From assembly GCA_964490075.1 (NCBI GenBank), contig CAZBBK010000039.1, positions 1 to 52,343 on the forward strand: a stretch of DNA of 52,343 nt. The letters run 5' to 3'. Of this stretch, positions 43,532 through 52,343 are shown piece after piece. This stretch comes from an uncultured Gemmatimonadota bacterium (GTDB lineage Bacteria; GCA-2686955). Positions within the stretch are counted from its first letter, which is position 1, and each line of letters begins with the position of its first letter. A program made the position numbers and the translations under genes. The notes below the pieces were generated by a model, which saw only the letters and a list, made by a program, of their open reading frames with translations, was not told the DNA's origin and did no database searches.

Positions 43532-44500
43532 TCAGTCCAGCAACCCTCTCTCACCCATCCATTCGTCGTTGAAGACCGAGCCCAGATAGCGCGTGGCGCT
43601 GTCCGGGAAGATGGTGACGATGCGCGCCGGGTCGGGCAGCGACCGGGCCAGCTTCAACGAAGCCCACAACGCCGCGCCGCTCGAGCCGCCGCCGAGGATG
43701 CCTTCACCCTTCACCAGCAGCCGCGCATGGTGAAATATGTCGCGATCAGAGATTCGGTAGACATCGTCGATCTGCTCGAAGTCGGGGCAGCCGATCAGGA
43801 ACTCGTCGCCCAGCCCCTCGACCAGGTAGGGGTGCGGCCGGACCACCTCGTGGCTATGGAAGTAGTCGTAGAAGATCGATCCTGCCGGGTCGACGGCGAC
43901 GGTTTTTATCCTCGGATCTTGCTCCTTCAGGAACTTCGCGGTGCCGCAGATCGTCCCGCCGGTGCCGATGCCGGCCACCAGGTAGTCGATCCTGCCCTCC
44001 ATCTGCCGCCAGATCTCCGGCCCGGTGGTGGCGTAGTGGGCCGCGAGATTGTCGCGGCTGTTGTGCTGGTCCGGGAAGTAGGCGCCTGGAGTCTCGGCGA
44101 CGATTCGTGGAGTGATGTTGTTGTAGCTGTCGGGTGACTCCGGCGGCAGCGAGCTGTCGACTGTGTGGACCTCTACGTCGAGGGCCCGCAGCAGGGCGAG
44201 CTTCTCCTTGCTCAGGGAGTCGCGCACCACCACCTTCAGGCGATACCCCTTCTGGATGGCGACCAGCGCCAACCCCACCGCTGTGTTGCCGGAGGAGTTC
44301 TCGATGATCAACCGACCCCGCTCCAGGCGCCCTTCGGCCTCGGCCTTCTCGATCATGTACTTGGCGATCCGGTCCTTGACGCTGCCCCCCGGGTTCATGA
44401 ACTCGAGTTTGGCGAAGATCTCGCTCGCGACATCGGCAGTGACCTTGCGGAGCCGCACCAGCGGCGTGTTGCCGATGGCGTCCAGGATGTCGTCGGGCAT
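43532..44500 (-). CDS. PLP-dependent cysteine synthase / cystathionine beta-synthase family protein
   Basis: IGNTPLVRL, NPGGSVKDRIA (PLP Lys), SSGNT, GIGTGGT; no C-terminal CBS domains. Confidence 0.93.
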   Translation of the reverse strand: MPDDILDAIGNTPLVRLRKVTADVASEIFAKLEFMNPGGSVKDRIAKYMIEKAEAEGRLERGRLIIENSSGNTAVGLALVAIQKGYRLKVVVRDSLSKEKLALLRALDVEVHTVDSSLPPESPDSYNNITPRIVAETPGAYFPDQHNSRDNLAAHYATTGPEIWRQMEGRIDYLVAGIGTGGTICGTAKFLKEQDPRIKTVAVDPAGSIFYDYFHSHEVVRPHPYLVEGLGDEFLIGCPDFEQIDDVYRISDRDIFHHARLLVKGEGILGGGSSGAALWASLKLARSLPDPARIVTIFPDSATRYLGSVFNDEWMGERGLLD

Positions 44501-44503
44501 CGG

Positions 44504-44872
44504 CTAACGCCTTTCCAGGATCTCGATGTCGTAGCCGTCGGGATCACGCACGAAGATGTAGCGCGAGGACGATGAGGGCTTCGACCGGCGCAACCACCAC
44601 CCCCGCGACTCCACGGCTGCGATCACGGCATCGAGGTCGTCGCAGGCGAAGGCCAGATGGCCGAACTGGTCGCCGAGGGCGTAGCCGCGGCCGTCGTGAT
44701 TGTGGGTGAGCTCGATGTGGTAAGCGCCGGCGTCATCGGACAGGAAGACGAGCGTGGCCTCGTCTCCGAGCCGGCGGCGGCGGACCTCGTGCAGCCCCAG
44801 GAAGCCGGTGTAGAAATCCAGCGAGCGCTCGAGGTCGGTCACGCGGATCATGGTGTGGGCGAGCTGCATCAT
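44504..44872 (-). CDS. gloA: Lactoylglutathione lyase (glyoxalase I)
   Basis: HTMIRV.DLERSLDFY, IELTHN, FGHLAF, DPDGYDIE. Confidence 0.85.
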   Translation of the reverse strand: MMQLAHTMIRVTDLERSLDFYTGFLGLHEVRRRRLGDEATLVFLSDDAGAYHIELTHNHDGRGYALGDQFGHLAFACDDLDAVIAAVESRGWWLRRSKPSSSSRYIFVRDPDGYDIEILERR

Positions 44873-44982
44873 GAAGACGGAGTCTACCCTGAACCGGCGG
44901 ACGAGAGACTCCTAGGTATGGCAAGAGCGGCAACCCTATACTCGTCGTTTTGCCCTCCCATCCACTCGCCCGGAGCCCCCCG

Positions 44983-47280
44983 ATGAGCGCCGTTCTGGCC
45001 GAAATCTCGACGCGAGCCCGCGCGGCAGGCAGAAGCAGCCTGTTCGAGCACGAAGTCTACGCCCTCCTGGAGGAGGCGGGGATCGCCACGCCCGCGCATC
45101 TCTTCATCCCCGCGGGGGAACCGCTCTCGCCCGAGGCTCTCGATGCCATTCCCTCCTCCGAGGTGGTGCTGAAGATCGTGTCGGCCGACGTAACGCACAA
45201 GAGCGATGTCGGCGGGGTGCGATTTCTGGCTCGAGAGAGCGACGCGGTCGCCGCCGCAATCGCCGAGATGCTCGACACGGTCGCGCGGGCCGCCCCGGAG
45301 GCCGAAATTGCCGGAACCCTGATCGCCGAACGGATCGATTACGAGACCGATCTGCCCGGCTCGGAGTATCTGCTGAGCTGCCGCTGGGACGACGCCTTCG
45401 GTCCGGTGGTGGTCTTTGGCATCGGCGGCCTGCTCACCGAGTGGTATGCCGACGTCACCGAGGGGGGGGCGCAGACCATCGCGTCGGCCAGCGACGACGC
45501 GCTCGACCGGGCGATCCAGACGATCGCGAGGAGCCCGCTGGGCGTGCTGGCTCTCGAGCCCGGGCGCCTGCACCGCGACCCCCCGGCGCAAATGGAGACC
45601 TTGTCGCGGGCCTTGCACGCGGTGTCGAAGCTGGCGCGCCTGTGCCACCAGGGAAGCTGCATCGCGGAGCTGGAGATCAACCCGCTGGCGGCGCGGCGCG
45701 GACAGCTGGTGGCGGTCGACGGCTTCGCCCGTCTCGGCACACCGCCGGCGCACGACCGGGCGCCGCGACCGCTGGCGACGATCGCCGGGCTGCTGCACCC
45801 ACGCAGCGCGTGCGTGTTGGGAGCCTCGACCCGCGGCGCCAATGCCGGGCGGATCATCCTGCAGAACCTCAAGAGCGCCCCGGGCCTCGACTACGGGCAT
45901 CTCTATGCGATTCACGGCAAGGCCGAGCGCATCGATGGGATTCCCTGCCACGCGAGCATTGCCGAGCTGCCCGAGCGAGTCGACCTGGCGGTGGTGGCGC
46001 TGCCGGCCGATGCGGCCGTAGAGGCGATCGCCGAGCTGGTGCGAGCCGACAAGGCGCGTGCGATCATCCTGATCACCGGAGGCTTCGCCGAGACCGGCCA
46101 GACCGGACGCGCGCAGGCGGTGCGCGACACCATGCGCGAGGCGCGCGCGCGCGACGACGGCGGCGCGGTGCTGGTCGGCGGCAACTGCCTGGGCATCGTC
46201 AGCAAGCGTGAATACAACACCTTTTTCCTGCCTTCCTACAAGCTCCCCCTGAGCGACGCTCCGGGGAGCAACCTGGCGGTCATCAGCCAGTCGGGCGCCT
46301 ACCTGGTGTCGCTCTCGAGCAACCTCGACAGCATCGTCCATCCTCGGGCGTCGATCAGCTACGGCAACGAGATGGACCTCACCGCCTCGGATTTCTTCGA
46401 GTACTACCTCGACCACGAGCCCGACCTGCGGGTGTTCGGCTTCTACATCGAGGGTTTCGCGCCGGCGGAAGGAGAGCGCTTCGTGCGCTTGACCCGGCGT
46501 GCCACCGAGGAGGGCAAGGCGGTGGTGGTCTACAAGGCCGGCCGCACCGAGTTCGGAGCGCGTGCCGCCGCCAGCCACACCGCGTCGATGGTCGGCAACT
46601 ACGATGTGGCGCGTGCGTTGCTCGAGGATGCCGGTGCGCTGGTCACACGCACCCTGAACCGCTTCGAGGACTTCACCAAGATCCTGACCATGCTCGACCG
46701 GCGCATTCCGCGCGGCAAGCGGGTGGCGGTGGTCACCAACGCCGGCTTCGAGGCCGGGGCGGTCAGCGACCATCTCTACGACCTGGAGTTGGCCGAGCTC
46801 CAGGACGAGACGATCGCCAGGTTGAGAGATGTGCTGCCCGAGATCGCTCACGCCGGCAATCCCGTCGACACCACGCCGATGGCTGACAGCGAGGTGTTCT
46901 CGGCCTGCGTGGAGATCGTCGCCACCGACCCGGGTGTCGACATGCTGATCGCATCGGCGGTGCCGGCGACGCCGGCGCTCGACATCCTGGCACCCGACCT
47001 GAGCGGCGCCCATCCGGAAAACGTGTTCGCGATGAACTCGGTCCCGGCAAGGCTCTTCCGCACCTTCCAATCGATCGACAAGCCGATGGTCTGCGCGGTC
47101 GACTCGGGCCGGCTCTACGACCCCAGCGTGCTGCTGCTGCAACGCAACGGCATACCGGTCTATCGCAAGATCGACCGTGCCAGCCGGGCGCTGGCGGCGT
47201 TTCGTCATGTGCAGCAGTTGCGCGGTCACCAAGCTCTATCCGGATCAAACCCCAGCAAAGTCCGAGTGCTCCCTCTTTGA
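44983..47280 (+). CDS. ADP-forming acyl-CoA synthetase (acetate--CoA ligase family), ATP-grasp domain N-terminal
   Basis: VLKIVS..HKSDVGGV and ELEINPL (ATP-grasp), then CoA-binding domain, GGNCLG, SQSGA, YGNEMD, AAASHTA phospho-His loop. Confidence 0.92.
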   Translation: MSAVLAEISTRARAAGRSSLFEHEVYALLEEAGIATPAHLFIPAGEPLSPEALDAIPSSEVVLKIVSADVTHKSDVGGVRFLARESDAVAAAIAEMLDTVARAAPEAEIAGTLIAERIDYETDLPGSEYLLSCRWDDAFGPVVVFGIGGLLTEWYADVTEGGAQTIASASDDALDRAIQTIARSPLGVLALEPGRLHRDPPAQMETLSRALHAVSKLARLCHQGSCIAELEINPLAARRGQLVAVDGFARLGTPPAHDRAPRPLATIAGLLHPRSACVLGASTRGANAGRIILQNLKSAPGLDYGHLYAIHGKAERIDGIPCHASIAELPERVDLAVVALPADAAVEAIAELVRADKARAIILITGGFAETGQTGRAQAVRDTMREARARDDGGAVLVGGNCLGIVSKREYNTFFLPSYKLPLSDAPGSNLAVISQSGAYLVSLSSNLDSIVHPRASISYGNEMDLTASDFFEYYLDHEPDLRVFGFYIEGFAPAEGERFVRLTRRATEEGKAVVVYKAGRTEFGARAAASHTASMVGNYDVARALLEDAGALVTRTLNRFEDFTKILTMLDRRIPRGKRVAVVTNAGFEAGAVSDHLYDLELAELQDETIARLRDVLPEIAHAGNPVDTTPMADSEVFSACVEIVATDPGVDMLIASAVPATPALDILAPDLSGAHPENVFAMNSVPARLFRTFQSIDKPMVCAVDSGRLYDPSVLLLQRNGIPVYRKIDRASRALAAFRHVQQLRGHQALSGSNPSKVRVLPL

Positions 47281-48999
47281 GAGCCAGAGCTCTCGGTAGA
47301 GGGGGCACGAGGAAGCGAGATCGCGGTGTCGCCCGGCGCCGACCACGCGCCCTTGCTCCATCACCACGATTCGATCGGCCTGCGAGGCGAGCGCCAGAGA
47401 ATGGGTAATCACCAGCAGCGAAGGGCGCGGCTCGATCGATCGGATCGATTCGATCAGCTCTCGGGCGGTGCGGGCATCCAGATTCGCGGTTGGTTCATCC
47501 AGGACCAGCAGCGAGCCGCCCTGGATCAGGGCCCGCGCCAGAGCCAGGCGTTGGCGTTGTCCGCCGGACAGATCCCGCGCCCCCTCGTCGATCTCGCCGT
47601 TCAGACCACCTGGACGACCCTGCACGATCGACATCGCTTGCGCGGATCGAAGCCCTTTGGAGATCCATTCATCACCTCCCGGTGTCGTTCCCAGACAGAC
47701 GTTGTCTCGCAAAGGACCGGAGAAGAACACACCTGTCTGAAACGCCACGACGATCGCCGAGCGCAGCTCCTCGACCGCCAGGTGGGCGATGTTCCGTCCA
47801 TCGAGCGTGACCGACCCGGTCGATGGGTCGCGCAGGCGCACCAGAAGATCGGCCAGCGTCGACTTCCCACACCCCGAGGGACCAACCAGCGCCACGTGCT
47901 CTCCGGCGCGGAGATCGAAGCTACAACCGCTCAGAGCCGGCGTACCCTCAGGATAGGTGTAGCTTAGGTTCCGTACCGACAGCCCGGCGGCTCGGTGCTG
48001 CTCGGTCGTTCGCGGCCGCGGAGCGCGAGGTTCGACCGCGAGAGCAAGGATCTCGCCGATCCGGTCCAGCGCGACCAAGGAGCCCTGAGCGGTGACCAGC
48101 GTGCCCGCGATTGCAGACGCCGGCCCGAAGAGGTAGCCGAGAAATGCCTGAAAGGCCAACCATGTCCCGATCGACATGCGCTCCGCCATGATCTCACGGC
48201 CACATCCCCAGAACAGGATCAAGGGGGCGCATGCGCCGATCAGCCCCACCAGGGCGCCGGCGTTGCACGATGCCGTCGCGGATCGACGCTGCGCCTCGAT
48301 GGCACGATCCATCACGATGCCGGCCCTGCGCGCGGCGAAGAGATCCGCCAGGTAGGCCTTGATCGTGTGCGCGCCCGCCACCAACTCCTGCATGGCGCCG
48401 CGCTCGACGGCGTCGGTTTCCTGCACGCCGCGCGCGGTTCGGCTCAAGACACCGGCGCATCCGTGCGTTGCTAGCACGTAGGGAAGAACAAGCGCCAATG
48501 CGGTCCAGCCGAGACCCGGGTGCAGCCGCACCACCATGAATGCGCCCACGCCGAAGGTCAACGCATCTCGGAGCAGACCGAAGACGGTAGCCCCCATGAT
48601 CCCGCCCAGACGATCGCAGTCGCGTTGGATTCTGCCGACCAGATAGCCGCTCTTGAAGCGCGCCAGCTCTTCGCTGGGCAGTCGCAATACATGGGCCAGC
48701 AGATGGGCCTTGGTATCCCGTACGACTTCTTGACGGAAGCGGGCGAAGGCATAGCTCTGTGCGTACTCCAGAGCGGTTCGCAGTCCGACGATCGCGAAGC
48801 ACGCGGCGATGATTCCATCGAAGGTCGCGAACGCGCTCGCACCCCGCGGCAAGACCTCATCGATGATGTGCCGGGTGATCAGGGGCATCGGCAGCATGGT
48901 GCTCACCGATCCGAGCATCGCCGCGGCGCCCGCGACCGCCAGGCCGATATGCCTTCTGACCTGCGGTCGGATCGCTTCGACGCGCGCCACTTGAATCAC
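47245..48999 (-). CDS. ABC exporter, fused permease/ATPase (no C39 peptidase domain)
   Basis: N-terminal TM domain, GPSGCGKST, LSGGQRQR, LVLDEPTANLD, H-loop ITH. Confidence 0.93.
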   Translation of the reverse strand: MIQVARVEAIRPQVRRHIGLAVAGAAAMLGSVSTMLPMPLITRHIIDEVLPRGASAFATFDGIIAACFAIVGLRTALEYAQSYAFARFRQEVVRDTKAHLLAHVLRLPSEELARFKSGYLVGRIQRDCDRLGGIMGATVFGLLRDALTFGVGAFMVVRLHPGLGWTALALVLPYVLATHGCAGVLSRTARGVQETDAVERGAMQELVAGAHTIKAYLADLFAARRAGIVMDRAIEAQRRSATASCNAGALVGLIGACAPLILFWGCGREIMAERMSIGTWLAFQAFLGYLFGPASAIAGTLVTAQGSLVALDRIGEILALAVEPRAPRPRTTEQHRAAGLSVRNLSYTYPEGTPALSGCSFDLRAGEHVALVGPSGCGKSTLADLLVRLRDPSTGSVTLDGRNIAHLAVEELRSAIVVAFQTGVFFSGPLRDNVCLGTTPGGDEWISKGLRSAQAMSIVQGRPGGLNGEIDEGARDLSGGQRQRLALARALIQGGSLLVLDEPTANLDARTARELIESIRSIEPRPSLLVITHSLALASQADRIVVMEQGRVVGAGRHRDLASSCPLYRELWLSKREHSDFAGV

Positions 49000-49012
49000 C
49001 GCCCAGCCAGGA

Positions 49013-51169
49013 TTACAACCACGAGAGCATGGCGACCTTGGTCAGGAGCGCCCACTCACCTTCGCGCCAGGTTCCGGATCGATTCAGTCCCGCATAGAAG
49101 ACCGCGTGACGCCAGCTGAGGCAGGCGAGCGCGTTGAGATCAAGCCAGGCCCTGGACCGCCAATCACTGCCCCAGCTCGTTGCGTCGACTCCCTGCGCGT
49201 AGAGCTGGAAGTAGGTCCGATCCGATACGCTGTAGCGAGGACGGATAGAGACGGTGGTCCAGTCGATCTCCTCCGCTCCGGGGGGGCGCTCCCACATTCG
49301 GTAGATATTGGTGTCGACGGTCAGCTGCCGCCCGATATTGGCGGTGCTCGAAAGCGACACCGATCGGAAGTCGACGCGCTCCGCCAGAGTGTAGTCGATC
49401 ATGTTGCCCGCGCCGGCGCTCAGCGTTGCCATGAGAGCGCGCGTGGGATTTGATCCGACGCCCGCGACGACAGAGCGCGTGTCATGGACCTCGCCAAAGT
49501 AGGTCGTCCGGCTCAGGTCGCCGTCGATCCACCCGCTCCACTGCTCCAGGGTTGTGACCGATAGTCCGGGGTTCCAGCTCCACGACCACCGGGGATCCCC
49601 CTCGTAGCGCGAGAAGCTCCCTTTCGATCCGATGCTGAGGGTGCGAATCCCAAGGCGCATCGGGTGTGGAGTCAGGAAGGCCGAGCCCGTCCATCGATCC
49701 TGGCCCGCCCACGGCACATAGCCCAGCTCGGAAGCCGAGAACTCGGTCGCCACATGGCGATAGGAGAGGGAGGCCGCCCGCGCCGCGTCGTAGAATCTGA
49801 GCTTTCCGTACGCCGCCAATCCCGAGGCGCCCTCGTGAACCGACTCGGCGACCTGCCCCTCGAAGTTCCAGTCGCGCGAAAGCTCGAGGTAGGTGTCGCC
49901 TCCGACGACCGTCTCGTTGCGGCTACCGCCGCCGGCGTGGGTCAAGGTGGCACCGACATCGGAGCCCTCACCGAAGTCTCGCGCGATCCTGAACACCGAG
50001 TACTGGGCGCGCGGCTCGGTCGACTCACCGGTCCAGGGGCTGACGTACGAGGTGCGTTCGGTGATCGAGTGCACCGCGGCGATCGAGTAGCGATCGACCT
50101 TGCCGGTCAGCTTCGTGCCGAAGAGAATCGGCACCAGCTCCCCATCGGCCAGCTTCTTGCCGATTCTGCGCGAGTAGAAGAGCTGGAAAGGTGTGTCGAA
50201 GAGATCGTTGCGTTCGGAGAACAGGGGACGGCGCTCGGCGTAGTAGGTCTCATAACGCGACAGGTTTACGTAATTGGGATCGGCGCTGATCTCGCCGAAG
50301 TCCGGATTGAGCGCCGCGTCGAGCACCATGGCGGAGCCGATTCGGACCTTGGCGCTGATCCCAAGCTCGGTTTCGGTTCTGAGCGCTTCACCCGCGGGCG
50401 AGCTGAACGAACGACTGGCGGCGGTTGGAACCAGGGCGATTCGCCCCGTATTGAAGGGACCGGAAAGACCGGTAACCGGGCGGGCATCGACCAGCTTGAC
50501 GATGGCCTCGCCGTCCCGCGGTCGAGAAAGCAACGATTCCTCGTTCAGTCGGTGAATCATGCGCCCGAAGTTGAGCGCGCAGCGCGGCGCTTCGCCGTCG
50601 GTGAATCGCAGCTCACGGAATGGCACCGCGATCTCAGCGTTCCAGCCTTCGTCGTGCACGGTGGCTGCCGCGCTCCACTCCGCGTCCCAGGTACGGTCCA
50701 CGGAGAGGCCGTCATCGGTGAGATGCGCGTCGCCGCGGGTGCCGGCGGCGCCGACCGAGAACAGATAGGCGGTCGATCCTTCGGCATCGGTGTCGATGAT
50801 CACGTAGGCGAGATCGCTCCCGCCTCCCGCATCGCGGTTGGCGATCCTGGCCTGGATCGCGCCCGGCTCGCTGTCGTGGCAACGAAACGAGAAGTAGAGC
50901 GCTTCGTGGTCGTAGCAGGCCTGGACCTCGGTCGGCATCGACGGTGCCTTGCCCGGGTCCGGCCAGTTGGTGATGAACCCGCCGTGACGCGGGCGCGATC
51001 TCCAGCAGGGGTCGTCTAGCTGGCCGTCGACCGTAGGCGACATCAACGCGAAGGACAGCTCGAGGACCTCTGTGGGCTGCGGATCCGCGAAGGCCGGATG
51101 GGTCACGGCGGCCACAGCGCAGAGGAGGAGAGGGACGAGAAGGCTGCTTGGCACGACAGCTCCAATCAT
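49013..51169 (-). CDS. CBM9-like + DUF5916-type outer-membrane beta-barrel protein
   Basis: Signal peptide after ATG 51169, PTVDGQLDDPCW, GWNAEIAVPFRELRF (CBM9-like), LNPDFGEI, ETYYAERRPLFSE, LFYSRRIG, then amphipathic strands. Confidence 0.85.
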   Translation of the reverse strand: MIGAVVPSSLLVPLLLCAVAAVTHPAFADPQPTEVLELSFALMSPTVDGQLDDPCWRSRPRHGGFITNWPDPGKAPSMPTEVQACYDHEALYFSFRCHDSEPGAIQARIANRDAGGGSDLAYVIIDTDAEGSTAYLFSVGAAGTRGDAHLTDDGLSVDRTWDAEWSAAATVHDEGWNAEIAVPFRELRFTDGEAPRCALNFGRMIHRLNEESLLSRPRDGEAIVKLVDARPVTGLSGPFNTGRIALVPTAASRSFSSPAGEALRTETELGISAKVRIGSAMVLDAALNPDFGEISADPNYVNLSRYETYYAERRPLFSERNDLFDTPFQLFYSRRIGKKLADGELVPILFGTKLTGKVDRYSIAAVHSITERTSYVSPWTGESTEPRAQYSVFRIARDFGEGSDVGATLTHAGGGSRNETVVGGDTYLELSRDWNFEGQVAESVHEGASGLAAYGKLRFYDAARAASLSYRHVATEFSASELGYVPWAGQDRWTGSAFLTPHPMRLGIRTLSIGSKGSFSRYEGDPRWSWSWNPGLSVTTLEQWSGWIDGDLSRTTYFGEVHDTRSVVAGVGSNPTRALMATLSAGAGNMIDYTLAERVDFRSVSLSSTANIGRQLTVDTNIYRMWERPPGAEEIDWTTVSIRPRYSVSDRTYFQLYAQGVDATSWGSDWRSRAWLDLNALACLSWRHAVFYAGLNRSGTWREGEWALLTKVAMLSWL

Positions 51170-51247
51170 GGCGACAGGCAATCGCGAGCGGTGTCTCGGT
51201 ATCGGTGAATGAGGAGGGAGTAACAACACAACGGCGGGATCTCGCTC

Positions 51248-51309
51248 GCCCGGAGCCGCGCGACTCAGGCATGACCAGCCGGTCGTCAGTGGGTCGCGCG
51301 GCTCCGGGC
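51248..51309. promoter_or_regulatory. Long RNA hairpin directly downstream of precursor genes (stabiliser/attenuator)
   Basis: 17-bp perfect inverted repeat GCCCGGAGCCGCGCGAC (51248-51264) / GTCGCGCGGCTCCGGGC (51293-51309) with a pairable interior. Confidence 0.7.
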
Positions 51310-51327
51310 ATCGATCGGGCTCCGTTG

Positions 51328-51477
51328 CTACTTGGAACCCTCGCCCTTGGTGATCTGGAACCTCGGCGCGGTGTCGTCGTTGTCGTGGCCGCAATTGCCG
51401 AACGTGCAAGCGTTGTTCCAGAGGCAGAAGCAAGGGAATGCGGGGTCGTGGTCGTGGGGGTTGCGAATCCAATCCAT
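51328..51477 (-). CDS. Cys-rich RiPP precursor peptide 2 (49 aa)
   Basis: Manual translation MDWIRNPHDHDPAFPCFCLWNNACTFGNCGHDNDDTAPRFQITKGEGSK*; AGGAG RBS 7 nt upstream; paralog of the adjacent peptide. Confidence 0.88.
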   Translation of the reverse strand: MDWIRNPHDHDPAFPCFCLWNNACTFGNCGHDNDDTAPRFQITKGEGSK

Positions 51478-51564
51478 GGGATCACTCCTGAGTACAGTGG
51501 TTGCTCAGGCGCCTCATCGATGCGCCGTCTCTGGGACGGAGCGAGAGCGCCTGCGCGGAGTCGG

Positions 51565-51714
51565 TCAGTTTTCGTCCTTGGCCGGTGCGATGGAGAACTG
51601 AGGTTGGTCGACGCATTTGCTGTCACCACAGTTGCCCTTGTCGCAACCGCGGTTGATGATGCAGAAGCAGGCGCCGGGAAGCTCTATCCTTGCAGGTTCT
51701 CGGATCCAGTCCAT
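51565..51714 (-). CDS. Cys-rich RiPP precursor peptide 1 (49 aa)
   Basis: Manual translation MDWIREPARIELPGACFCIINRGCDKGNCGDSKCVDQPQFSIAPAKDEN*; AGGAG RBS 7 nt upstream; follows the SPASM gene. Confidence 0.88.
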   Translation of the reverse strand: MDWIREPARIELPGACFCIINRGCDKGNCGDSKCVDQPQFSIAPAKDEN

Positions 51715-51851
51715 ATGTTCTCTCCTGGTTGTGGTGCTCTGCGGCTACCTGGTACTTCGGTGTCGGATGAGGGGTCGGAGGGGCTCGAATCATGGTGTAT
51801 TCCTCAGCGTCCGCATGAGTGGCGCGCGCCCATTGACGTCGCTGCTGTTGC

Positions 51852-52343
51852 TCAGGCGACGGTCGCTTGAACGCGCTCGAAACGTGTGACCTCTTCCTCG
51901 AGCTCGCAGGTCACGAAGTCTCGAAGCGATGACTCGAGCGGCGGGACCCCACAGCTGGGGCCGTCTGCTTCCACGCCCAGGCGTCGGCGCAGGGGACATC
52001 CACCCAGGCAGAGCGGGAGGCGCTCACAGGTCGAACACTCGGGATGATCGGCCGGGTTGAAGCTCATCCATCGGAGCCATTCCTGGTTCCAGATTTGGAA
52101 GGGCCGATCGGCATCCGCGGGAGGAAGGTGGCCGATGGTGCCTGAGGAATCGCCGAAGTGAACCCAGCATTTCACCAACTCGCCAAGTGGGCCGATGCAA
52201 AGCCCGTTCTTGGTCACCGCGGTGCACAGGCTGGAGATGCCGGGGTAGTGGGAGGCGTCGCTCGCGAGATTGGCGCAGCCGAGTCGATCCCGCGCGCGGC
52301 TCGCGAAGATCCGGTATTCGGCGCTCGGCAGGTAGAGGTCCGC
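51852..52343 (-). CDS. Radical SAM/SPASM-domain peptide maturase, C-terminal part (runs off right edge)
   Basis: Frame open from window end; CTAVTKNGLCIGPLGELVKCW and CSTCERLPLCLGGCP...C (Cx2Cx5Cx3C..C) SPASM pattern. The CxxxCxxC core is outside the window. Confidence 0.88.
   Translation of the reverse strand, partial: ADLYLPSAEYRIFASRARDRLGCANLASDASHYPGISSLCTAVTKNGLCIGPLGELVKCWVHFGDSSGTIGHLPPADADRPFQIWNQEWLRWMSFNPADHPECSTCERLPLCLGGCPLRRRLGVEADGPSCGVPPLESSLRDFVTCELEEEVTRFERVQATVA

Follow-up and report, generated by a model that had tools for sequence, protein, structure and literature searches.

A candidate RiPP cassette combining a radical SAM/SPASM maturase, Cys-rich peptides, a divergent DUF5916 barrel and an ABC exporter in uncultured marine Gemmatimonadota

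What does a compact group of minus-strand genes at the end of a contig from an uncultured Gemmatimonadota bacterium make, and where does the product go? The window analysed here (contig CAZBBK010000039.1 of assembly GCA_964490075.1; 52,343 nt) is one whole contig of a 5.7-Mb, 136-contig genome (G000) that is 95% complete. A first reading, made from the sequence alone, had listed five co-oriented genes between position 47245 and the contig end, namely a partial SPASM-bearing enzyme, two 49-aa peptides, a DUF5916-type barrel protein and an ATP-binding cassette (ABC) exporter, and all five were confirmed by our inventory of open reading frames (ORFs). The group is very likely a system in which a radical S-adenosylmethionine (SAM) enzyme modifies a peptide. 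It is probably a self-contained cassette for a ribosomally synthesised and post-translationally modified peptide (RiPP), whose cross-linked, Cys-rich product would leave the cell via the ABC pump and the barrel.

The two peptides of the window, A and B, share 18 of 43 residues (42% identity; BLASTP E 9e-12) and are paralogues. Peptide A has five Cys (positions 16, 18, 24, 29 and 34), an N-terminal M-D-W-I-x-x-P motif and a C-terminal tail, and peptide B has the same N-terminal motif and four Cys (16, 18, 24 and 29). Across four related genomes, one or two ORFs of 49-57 aa lie directly downstream of the maturase gene. In an alignment of five peptides (A, B and three orthologues), M1, W3, P7 and three Cys columns were invariant, and the consensus start was M-[DKQ]-W-[IL]-x-x-P. 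Every one of the five contains at least four Cys in mid-peptide, followed by a tail of 15-25 residues, and Asn, Asp, Glu or Gln usually stands 2-4 residues past each Cys. Cys, His, Asp and Asn are abundant in the peptides, which lack a signal sequence. By eye, the variable tails also show a brief run of alternating hydrophobic residues ([FLV]-x-[IV]-like) about 6-12 residues from the end; the pump or the barrel might use it as a further recognition element.

All five peptide ORFs have an AGGAG-like Shine-Dalgarno site 6-9 nt ahead of the start codon. Substitutions between peptide A and its closest orthologue, at locus L010, over the first 20 codons number 2, 4 and 13 at first, second and third codon positions, respectively. 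The sequence-only reading had expected a similar short ORF in homologous loci, and one was present in all three (L010, L011 and L012). Paralogy, Shine-Dalgarno sites and orthologous ORFs at the same place in three relatives indicate that both 49-aa Cys-rich ORFs are real, and the evidence points to the small ORFs being genes. Their described absence from the ORF list does not extend to databases; identical 49-aa proteins exist in a public representative library.

The peptide family is confined to these sites. A profile of the five peptides matched at the cassette sites only (E 1e-16 to 1e-22) in the five genomes of the phylum-level group described below. Against 1,835,955,588 representative proteins it gave six matches at E up to 0.001, five of which were the input sequences; the sixth, P0246 (241 aa, E 9e-5), is an unrelated repetitive protein that we discarded. 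The peptides matched no model of Pfam or NCBIfam (NCBIfam E up to 0.1 for the window peptides and up to 0.01 for the orthologues), and a search of a protein atlas for look-alikes of peptide A gave a best score of 0.89 and no family. DUF5916 was mentioned in none of the literature searched, in agreement with the earlier statement that neither the precursor family nor the gene combination was recognisable as a characterised one.

The gene combination is conserved in a single family. The tool's phylum-level group holds five genomes, four in the window's own family (f1, including G000) and one, 95% complete, in a sister family (f2). Searching with the maturase fragment matched 5 of 61 genomes: the window's, three family members, and one unrelated genome with weak matches (1e-7). 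Maturase and peptide occur together in 4/4 genomes of f1 and in 0/1 of f2. The order maturase-peptide-DUF5916-ABC is found in G000, G002 and G003; in G001 two short contigs share the locus, which can be followed through maturase and peptide as far as DUF5916, where the contig stops. Loci L010 and L011 each carry a maturase, one peptide, DUF5916 and ABC gene in the same order and on the same strand as in the window. Identities between the window and L010/L011 were 53/48% for the maturase, 60/37% for DUF5916, 58/40% for the ABC exporter and 66/34% for peptide A; the parts of the cassette diverge in step. The flanks differ between loci: upstream of the cassette, the opposite strand carries an unassigned ORF and a methyltransferase/tetratricopeptide-repeat ORF in L010 and, in L011, ORFs that resemble thymidylate synthase and dihydrofolate reductase (by eye only). 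So far, the cassette has been seen only in this one small family of uncultured marine bacteria, represented by four metagenome-assembled genomes (MAGs).

As a control, profiles built from the maturase, barrel and ABC genes were run against 20 kb around each of 40 of the DUF5916 matches from a survey of 301 genomes, all outside the window's family (20 full-length and 20 of a 700-900-aa short-match class). None of the 40 loci had the cassette, and none had both a radical SAM gene and an ABC exporter nearby; a SPASM-clade radical SAM gene stood 6 kb away in one of them, and a full-length ABCB exporter lay within 1.5 kb in one. Linkage of radical SAM, ABC and DUF5916 genes is therefore specific to this lineage. 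Two control-type loci were considered as parallels and rejected. In L073 (G277:C1, 1-14458; an unrelated genome), a DUF5916 gene stands between a heavy-metal resistance-nodulation-division operon, with a CusB-like fusion protein that has four heavy-metal-binding domains and a CusA-like pump, and genes for a GNAT protein and an ABCB-type exporter, all co-oriented; TolC-like ORFs lie upstream (by eye), and the barrel is no stand-in for them. L075 (G257:C3, 8693-18300) has, on the same strand and 2-6 kb upstream of DUF5916, a SPASM-clade radical SAM gene and, after it, genes for an ABC-2 transporter, a DUF5128 beta-propeller and a GTPase of the CobW type. Its radical SAM enzyme lacks a RiPP recognition element (RRE) and lies, with the ABC-2 transporter, 6 kb from DUF5916 with six other ORFs between; it is possibly another peptide-modifying locus.

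The maturase of the window is a C-terminal fragment, and the N-terminal ~300 aa, which comprise the RRE and the radical SAM core, lie off the contig. The fragment passed the TIGR04085 SPASM model (40.7 bits, cut-off 27) and has the complete seven-Cys SPASM pattern (C40-x13-G-x4-C59; C103-x2-C106-x5-C112-x3-C116; C131); across 28 homologues, six of these Cys are invariant and one is nearly invariant. Its best full-family matches were the Clo7bot, CefB and TIGR04463 maturases (41 bits for the last), and it shares 53% identity with the L010 orthologue, where it corresponds to residues 300-457. The full-length orthologues at L010 and L011 (457 and 459 aa) contain PF04055 and CxxxCxxC, the motif expected of the window's missing upstream part, as does P0002, a public protein related to the maturase.

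Over their full length, the orthologues aligned with TIGR04463 (from model position 1-8 up to 396) at 183 bits (L010) and 237 bits (L011) against a cut-off of 525. Clo7bot (167-173 bits, cut-off 600), CefB (152-175, cut-off 600) and the geopeptide and FlmE/OhkG maturase families also aligned from end to end. Scores were lower for PapB (96-98 bits, cut-off 340), SCIFF (TIGR03974; 64-68, cut-off 425) and DynA; QhpD (TIGR03906) gave 56-68 bits (cut-off 453). An anaerobic sulfatase maturase, the alternative named at the outset, fared poorly when put to the test (62-71 bits), and the enzyme scores with the RiPP maturases (183-237 bits for TIGR04463). These matches, above those of other families and below the cut-offs, place the enzyme within the RRE-bearing radical SAM/SPASM peptide-maturase clade and outside all of its curated families.

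Close relatives of the enzyme are few. Among 5.8 billion clustered proteins (8000 candidates scored), P0002 (61% identity over 69% of the query) is the only close relative of the L010 enzyme besides the enzyme itself; all other scored candidates reached at most ~35%. A pattern scan of genome contigs returned only the four known loci. The same scan of metagenome contigs returned nothing with the alignment; with P0002 it gave five distant loci (26-29% identity), and the contig that encodes P0002 was absent from these matches.

A profile of the 28 homologues found CteB first among PDB entries (133 bits, E 1e-37), followed by TigE (8VPO) and an anaerobic sulfatase maturase. The AlphaFold2 model of the L010 enzyme had a predicted local distance difference test (pLDDT) of 84.8 and a predicted template modelling score (pTM) of 0.87. 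Its N-terminal domain is modelled as beta-beta-beta-alpha-alpha-alpha (three or four strands and three helices), which is RRE-like; Pfam PqqD was not detected by sequence in the orthologues. Foldseek placed CteB first (TMq 0.68, TMt 0.74, 452 columns including the N-terminal domain; ~18% identity), then SuiB and TigE. The N-terminal RRE that had been foreseen thus appears in the L010 model, in the full-length alignment with CteB and in the complex model presented next.

The L010 enzyme was modelled together with its peptide, using custom alignments of both and three controls. The score was 0.61, and the best of the three controls scored 0.00. Of 80 solved complexes, 58 attain that mark, as do 2 of 110 mismatched pairs. 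The runs agree in at least 46% of contacts, and the partner pLDDT is at least 37. Confident contacts join peptide residues 1-8 and 10 to enzyme residues 21, 24, 27-34, 37, 57, 60 and 63-65, all in the RRE-like domain; residues 331, 333-334 and 445 of the enzyme are also in contact. With the peptide start placed on the RRE in this way, the invariant M-x-W-[IL]-x-x-P is likely the recognition motif. Comparable leader-RRE complexes are present in the PDB (CteB-CteA, 5WGG; SuiB-SuiA, 5V1T; ChlB-ChlA, 9GM3), and the pass may therefore reflect likeness to solved complexes and not specificity for this pair.

Why does the maturase gene stop at the contig end? The window is the entire contig, and this assembly holds no sequence beyond 52343. 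The N-terminal part was sought in G000 by a CxxxCxxC scan of all contig ends and by a search with P0002, and it was not found. One of two adjacent radical SAM genes at the end of another contig (C15:90800-93700) is a complete ORF of ~400 aa that contains CxxxCxxC; both genes are unrelated to the cassette maturase (27-31% identity over the core). This complete gene was rejected as the missing part, with no overlap between the ends. P0002 (368 aa) shares the first 18 residues of the window fragment, and its maturase homology stops exactly there; beyond this point it has a tail resembling a ~110-nt dispersed repeat of G000 (Table 1).

Logan contigs from four marine metagenome DNA runs of one study (X1-X4), of which X1 may be the run that the window came from, were aligned on 50900-52343. 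In X1, a 13,103-nt contig covers this region without a difference and runs 5,566 nt past 52343, and contigs of X3 and X2 continue for 551 nt and 304 nt past it. In X4, a 3,095-nt contig matches only 52289-52343 and then has 28 other letters, which, read by eye, encode the start of the divergent tail of P0002. Three runs read through and the fourth diverges at 52289; the assembly therefore broke at a fork where the contig ends, and a continuous form of the gene exists. The gene may be disrupted in part of the population, or the X4 form could be an assembly path induced by the repeat.

The barrel protein passed PF19313 (68.1 bits, cut-off 22.6) over model positions 4-98 of 572 only, and reached 14.9 bits with CBM9_1 (PF06452), below the cut-off of 23.4. 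Of the earlier CBM9/DUF5916 assignment, the DUF5916 match and, in the model, the barrel fold stand, whereas the CBM9 part is sub-threshold by sequence. The 819-aa ORF assumed earlier is too long: the signal peptide begins at ATG 51169 or GTG 51154, the latter with GGAG upstream. The AlphaFold2 model (pLDDT 84.6, pTM 0.83) has a signal helix (8-22), a beta-sandwich (~31-238) and a barrel (~245-716) with about 24-27 consecutive strands over 244-714. Over 175-197 residues, the segment 31-238 superposes on CBM9 structures (Z 18.4-19.8, root-mean-square deviation ~3 A); the gamma subunit of ethylbenzene dehydrogenase is a further match (Z 15.3). For residues 245-716, MtrB was the best barrel match (Z 18.5, 397 residues aligned, root-mean-square deviation 4.7), followed by PapC/FimD ushers (Z 15.6-17.1) and TonB-dependent receptors (Z 14-17); by sequence, no solved structure matched the barrel protein. 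The signal peptide, the strand barrel and a hydrophobic or aromatic C-terminus (W-L, W-L and R-F in the three full-length proteins from the window, L010 and L011) make it a predicted outer-membrane beta-barrel. Its nearest relatives outside the family are ~32% identical. G000 has a second, canonical DUF5916 gene (C26:14643-17237; 864-aa ORF, 183 bits over the whole Pfam model), which lies away from any maturase, and the three family relatives also have an extra copy.

The exporter contains ABC_membrane (92.8 bits) and ABC_tran (101.2 bits) and begins 13 nt after the barrel stop, so both the domains and the gap given earlier were borne out. It begins with the membrane domain and reached no NCBIfam family cut-off. 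Its alignment with the peptide-cleavage/export family TIGR01193 (222 bits, cut-off 523.85) starts only at model position 178 of 708, so the exporter is without a C39 peptidase domain, and Pfam likewise found none.

From maturase to ABC gene, the intergenic gaps are 137, 87, 158 and 13 nt. Promoter and terminator scans of the locus gave none, Rfam gave 0 matches over 46900-52343 at E up to 0.1, and the public sequencing runs listed with this stretch include no RNA run. Downstream of the cassette (43532-47280) are a convergent gene for an ADP-forming acyl-CoA synthetase (ATP-grasp_5, CoA_binding and Succ_CoA_lig) and genes for a glyoxalase-family protein and a pyridoxal phosphate-dependent (PALP) enzyme; none of them adjoins the cassette in L010 or L011.

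Table 1. Features of the cassette and of the repeat discussed in the text. Positions refer to the window unless a contig of G000 is named.
Feature	Position	Strand	Basis
Radical SAM/SPASM maturase, C-terminal fragment, 163 aa	51852..52343	-	TIGR04085; open at contig end
Candidate precursor peptide A, 49 aa	51565..51714	-	ORF; paralogue of peptide B; profile match E 1.3e-22
Shine-Dalgarno-like AGGAGA ahead of peptide A	51721..51726	-	upstream 25 nt inspected
Candidate precursor peptide B, 49 aa	51328..51477	-	ORF; BLASTP to peptide A E 9e-12; profile match E 1.8e-21
Shine-Dalgarno-like AGGAG ahead of peptide B	51485..51489	-	upstream 25 nt inspected
Secreted divergent DUF5916 protein (predicted), 718 aa	49013..51169	-	PF19313; AlphaFold2 model
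ABC half-transporter, exporter (MsbA/ABCB) type, 584 aa	47245..48999	-	ABC_membrane + ABC_tran
C-terminal tail with hydrophobic stretch, peptide B	51328-51390	-	by eye; also in L010, L011, L012
C-terminal tail with hydrophobic stretch, peptide A	51565-51630	-	by eye; also in L010, L011, L012
~110-nt repeat-like copy	C35:48273-48382		sequence search
~110-nt repeat-like copy	C35:59647-59756		sequence search
~110-nt repeat-like copy	C68:27360-27470		sequence search
~110-nt repeat-like copy (partial)	C112:1364-1394		sequence search

A pathway may be drawn from these parts. The maturase would hold the extreme N-terminus of the precursor (M-[DKQ]-W-[IL]-x-x-P) on its N-terminal RRE, and SAM-derived radical chemistry, with two auxiliary [4Fe-4S] clusters, would join four conserved core Cys to carbons nearby. 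By analogy with related maturases, we favour thioethers for these cross-links, of the sactionine or the ranthionine type. Since the peptide has no signal sequence, the probably co-transcribed MsbA-like ABC half-transporter would take the cross-linked peptide over the inner membrane, and the translationally coupled protein with its CBM9-like domain and 24-26-strand barrel would handle it at the outer membrane. The simplest role of the barrel would be that of an exit pore, an assignment we make tentatively and hold as somewhat doubtful. In the earlier proposal of a ranthipeptide-like cluster with its own transport, the maturase class, the peptides and the synteny have held, whereas the thioether type and the export step at the barrel are still conjecture. 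Gene content, synteny, domains and motifs and the uniqueness of the peptide family are shown directly, and the contact of the leader with the RRE and the fold of the barrel come from models; the thioethers, the way out of the cell, what becomes of the N-terminal motif and what the product does are inferred.

Several points weigh against this pathway. The window's own maturase is incomplete, its N-terminal part is missing from the assembly, and one of the four metagenome runs joins the upstream part of the gene to repeat-like DNA at 52289. The orthologues miss every family cut-off by a wide margin, the peptide past residue 10 was modelled with low confidence, and five peptide sequences from four related MAGs give weak motif statistics. 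SuiB, a C-C cross-linker, has the same fold, and TigE (8VPO), a cyclopropyl synthase, is also close; the fold therefore does not fix the chemistry. Finally, the ORF inventory of the cassettes in the window, L010 and L011 contains no protease, membrane-fusion protein or TolC-type gene (the rest of the genome was not searched for the latter two), so leader removal and a continuous route over both membranes are unexplained. In a different role for the barrel, the peptide would be its partner, a fixed subunit, plug or ligand bound by the CBM9-like domain or in the lumen, and an outer-membrane protein loaded with peptide, instead of a free secreted compound, would be the functional unit. We judge this rather unlikely. 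With no membrane-fusion protein or TolC in the cassette, the ABC pump alone would deliver only to the periplasm, and QhpC offers a precedent: after cross-linking by QhpD it reaches the periplasm through the ABC exporter QhpF, as described in the part of PMC7876137 that deals with it. Every cassette copy retains the barrel, whose gene is coupled in translation to the ABC gene and whose sequence diverges in step with that of the peptide; it is also a divergent second DUF5916 copy beside the canonical one elsewhere in the genome. Its closest barrel match, MtrB, sheathes a protein in its lumen. The low QhpD family score (56-68 bits against 453) and the lack of QhpA/B/E/G-like genes speak against such a partnership, and two precursor copies in the window fit a secreted product equally. 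The narrower proposal that the peptide, once delivered to the periplasm, becomes a stable plug, gate or ligand of the CBM9-like/DUF5916 protein, as QhpC does in its own complex, rests on analogy and seems unlikely. If the peptide were such a partner, this would be the first radical-SAM-tailored peptide to serve as a built-in part of an outer-membrane barrel, and it would give the first functional handle on the widespread, unstudied DUF5916 family.

The barrel might instead recognise the mature peptide as its receptor or serve as an immunity gate, for instance in the re-uptake of a metal-binding or signalling peptide, with outer-membrane export left to general porins or to a TolC encoded elsewhere; siderophore and chalkophore receptor genes would be comparable. 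Its resemblance to TonB-dependent receptor barrels (Z 15-17), its ligand-binding-type CBM9-like domain (Z 19-20) and the abundance of Cys, His, Asp and Asn in the peptides would fit such a role. We nevertheless consider it improbable, given that Pfam found no plug domain or TonB-dependent receptor family, that no uptake permease or regulator lies in the cassettes of the window, L010 or L011, and that Cys consumed in thioethers could not bind metal. The chemistry itself could also differ, with C-C cross-links, epimerisation or changes at other residues, and the Cys left for disulfides or a metal site after export. This seems quite improbable: SuiB (a Lys-Trp cross-linker) and TigE are among the best structural matches and no family cut-off was reached, but the top full-length families (TIGR04463, Clo7bot, CefB, PapB and SCIFF) all act on Cys-rich substrates, the Cys are the only invariant core residues, and the invariant Trp belongs to the segment that the model places on the RRE. 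That the four kinds of gene are unrelated neighbours and the small ORFs non-coding is hardly credible. High-GC DNA does yield many spurious ORFs, but here the position, frame, start motif and Cys pattern of the ORF are kept in 4/4 related genomes, substitutions are biased to third positions, all five ORFs have Shine-Dalgarno sites, A and B form a paralogue pair at E 9e-12, and gene order is kept while the flanks change. We retain the reading of an exported, cross-linked peptide, at the strengths given above for its parts.

If it is correct, the cassette adds a precursor family and a maturase branch to the thioether RiPPs, from a barely sampled uncultured marine lineage, and it ties a DUF5916 member to a defined small-molecule pathway in a family found in about one-fifth of sampled genomes (59/301). 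How RiPPs cross the outer membrane of diderm bacteria without a TolC-type tripartite system is poorly understood. As a compact four-gene unit with a complete orthologue (L010), the system is small enough for expression and testing.

Radical SAM/SPASM enzymes beside Cys-rich peptides are a known and crowded kind of system. The best solved relative by profile and by fold is CteB, which acts on the SCIFF peptide CteA (5WGG/5WHY) and shares the RRE, radical SAM and SPASM domains. CteA is short (~45-50 aa) and Cys-rich, with its N-terminus held by the RRE as proposed here. The differences are an identity of only ~18%, a TIGR03974 score of 64-68 bits against 425, and peptides that match no precursor model; here, the Cys are in mid-peptide ahead of a tail of 15-25 aa, and the cassette, in a diderm host, includes barrel and ABC exporter genes. 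The PapB ranthipeptide, Clo7bot and CefB (Cys-every-fifth) systems, among the top matches, likewise pair a radical SAM/SPASM enzyme with small Cys-rich precursors, but the scores are far under the cut-offs and the precursors are unrelated. A Cys followed by Asp, Asn or Glu a few residues on, as in these peptides, resembles ranthipeptide motifs.

The best full-length NCBIfam match, TIGR04463, includes CrpC of Methanococcus voltae, which, according to the passage on it in PMC13692751, has three [4Fe-4S] clusters and forms ranthionine cross-links in a neighbouring Cys-rich protein. A Cys-rich substrate with an N-terminal recognition region, encoded next door, is common to both systems. CrpC differs in being archaeal and in its large, repeated-Cys substrates CrpA and CrpB, as against peptides of 49-57 aa here; the orthologues reach 183-237 bits against 525, and that passage describes no transport genes. 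A search of the literature on Clo7bot, Cys-every-fifth, rSAM_vs_C_rich, OhkG and FlmE gave nothing relevant past the CrpC paper; supplements lay outside this search and may list clusters from these MAGs. QhpD, another radical SAM/SPASM enzyme, forms three Cys-to-Asp/Glu thioethers in the small QhpC, which the ABC exporter QhpF moves to the periplasm, in the account given in the relevant part of PMC7876137. The likeness lies in thioethers in a small Cys-rich polypeptide followed by a dedicated ABC exporter; the dehydrogenase subunit, the subtilisin-like leader protease and the flavoprotein gene have no counterpart here.

For transport, bacteriocin export of the colicin V type in diderms combines a peptidase-containing ABC protein, a membrane-fusion protein and TolC, as outlined in the section of PMC10352776 that treats it. 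An ABC exporter beside the precursor and the need of a diderm for an outer-membrane component are shared features; the present cassette, in contrast, has no C39 peptidase domain and no membrane-fusion or TolC-like gene, and has a CBM9-like/DUF5916 barrel instead. Compared with other DUF5916 (PF19313) proteins, the cassette copy passes the Pfam cut-off and has the same two-part build, but only the first ~98 of 572 model positions match. 'Ranthipeptide' clusters in Gemmatimonadota already appear in antiSMASH-type surveys, to judge from the portion of PMC10469786 concerned. What is new here is the precursor family, a maturase branch that falls under every curated cut-off, and the fixed pairing of both with a divergent DUF5916 barrel and a peptidase-less ABC exporter.

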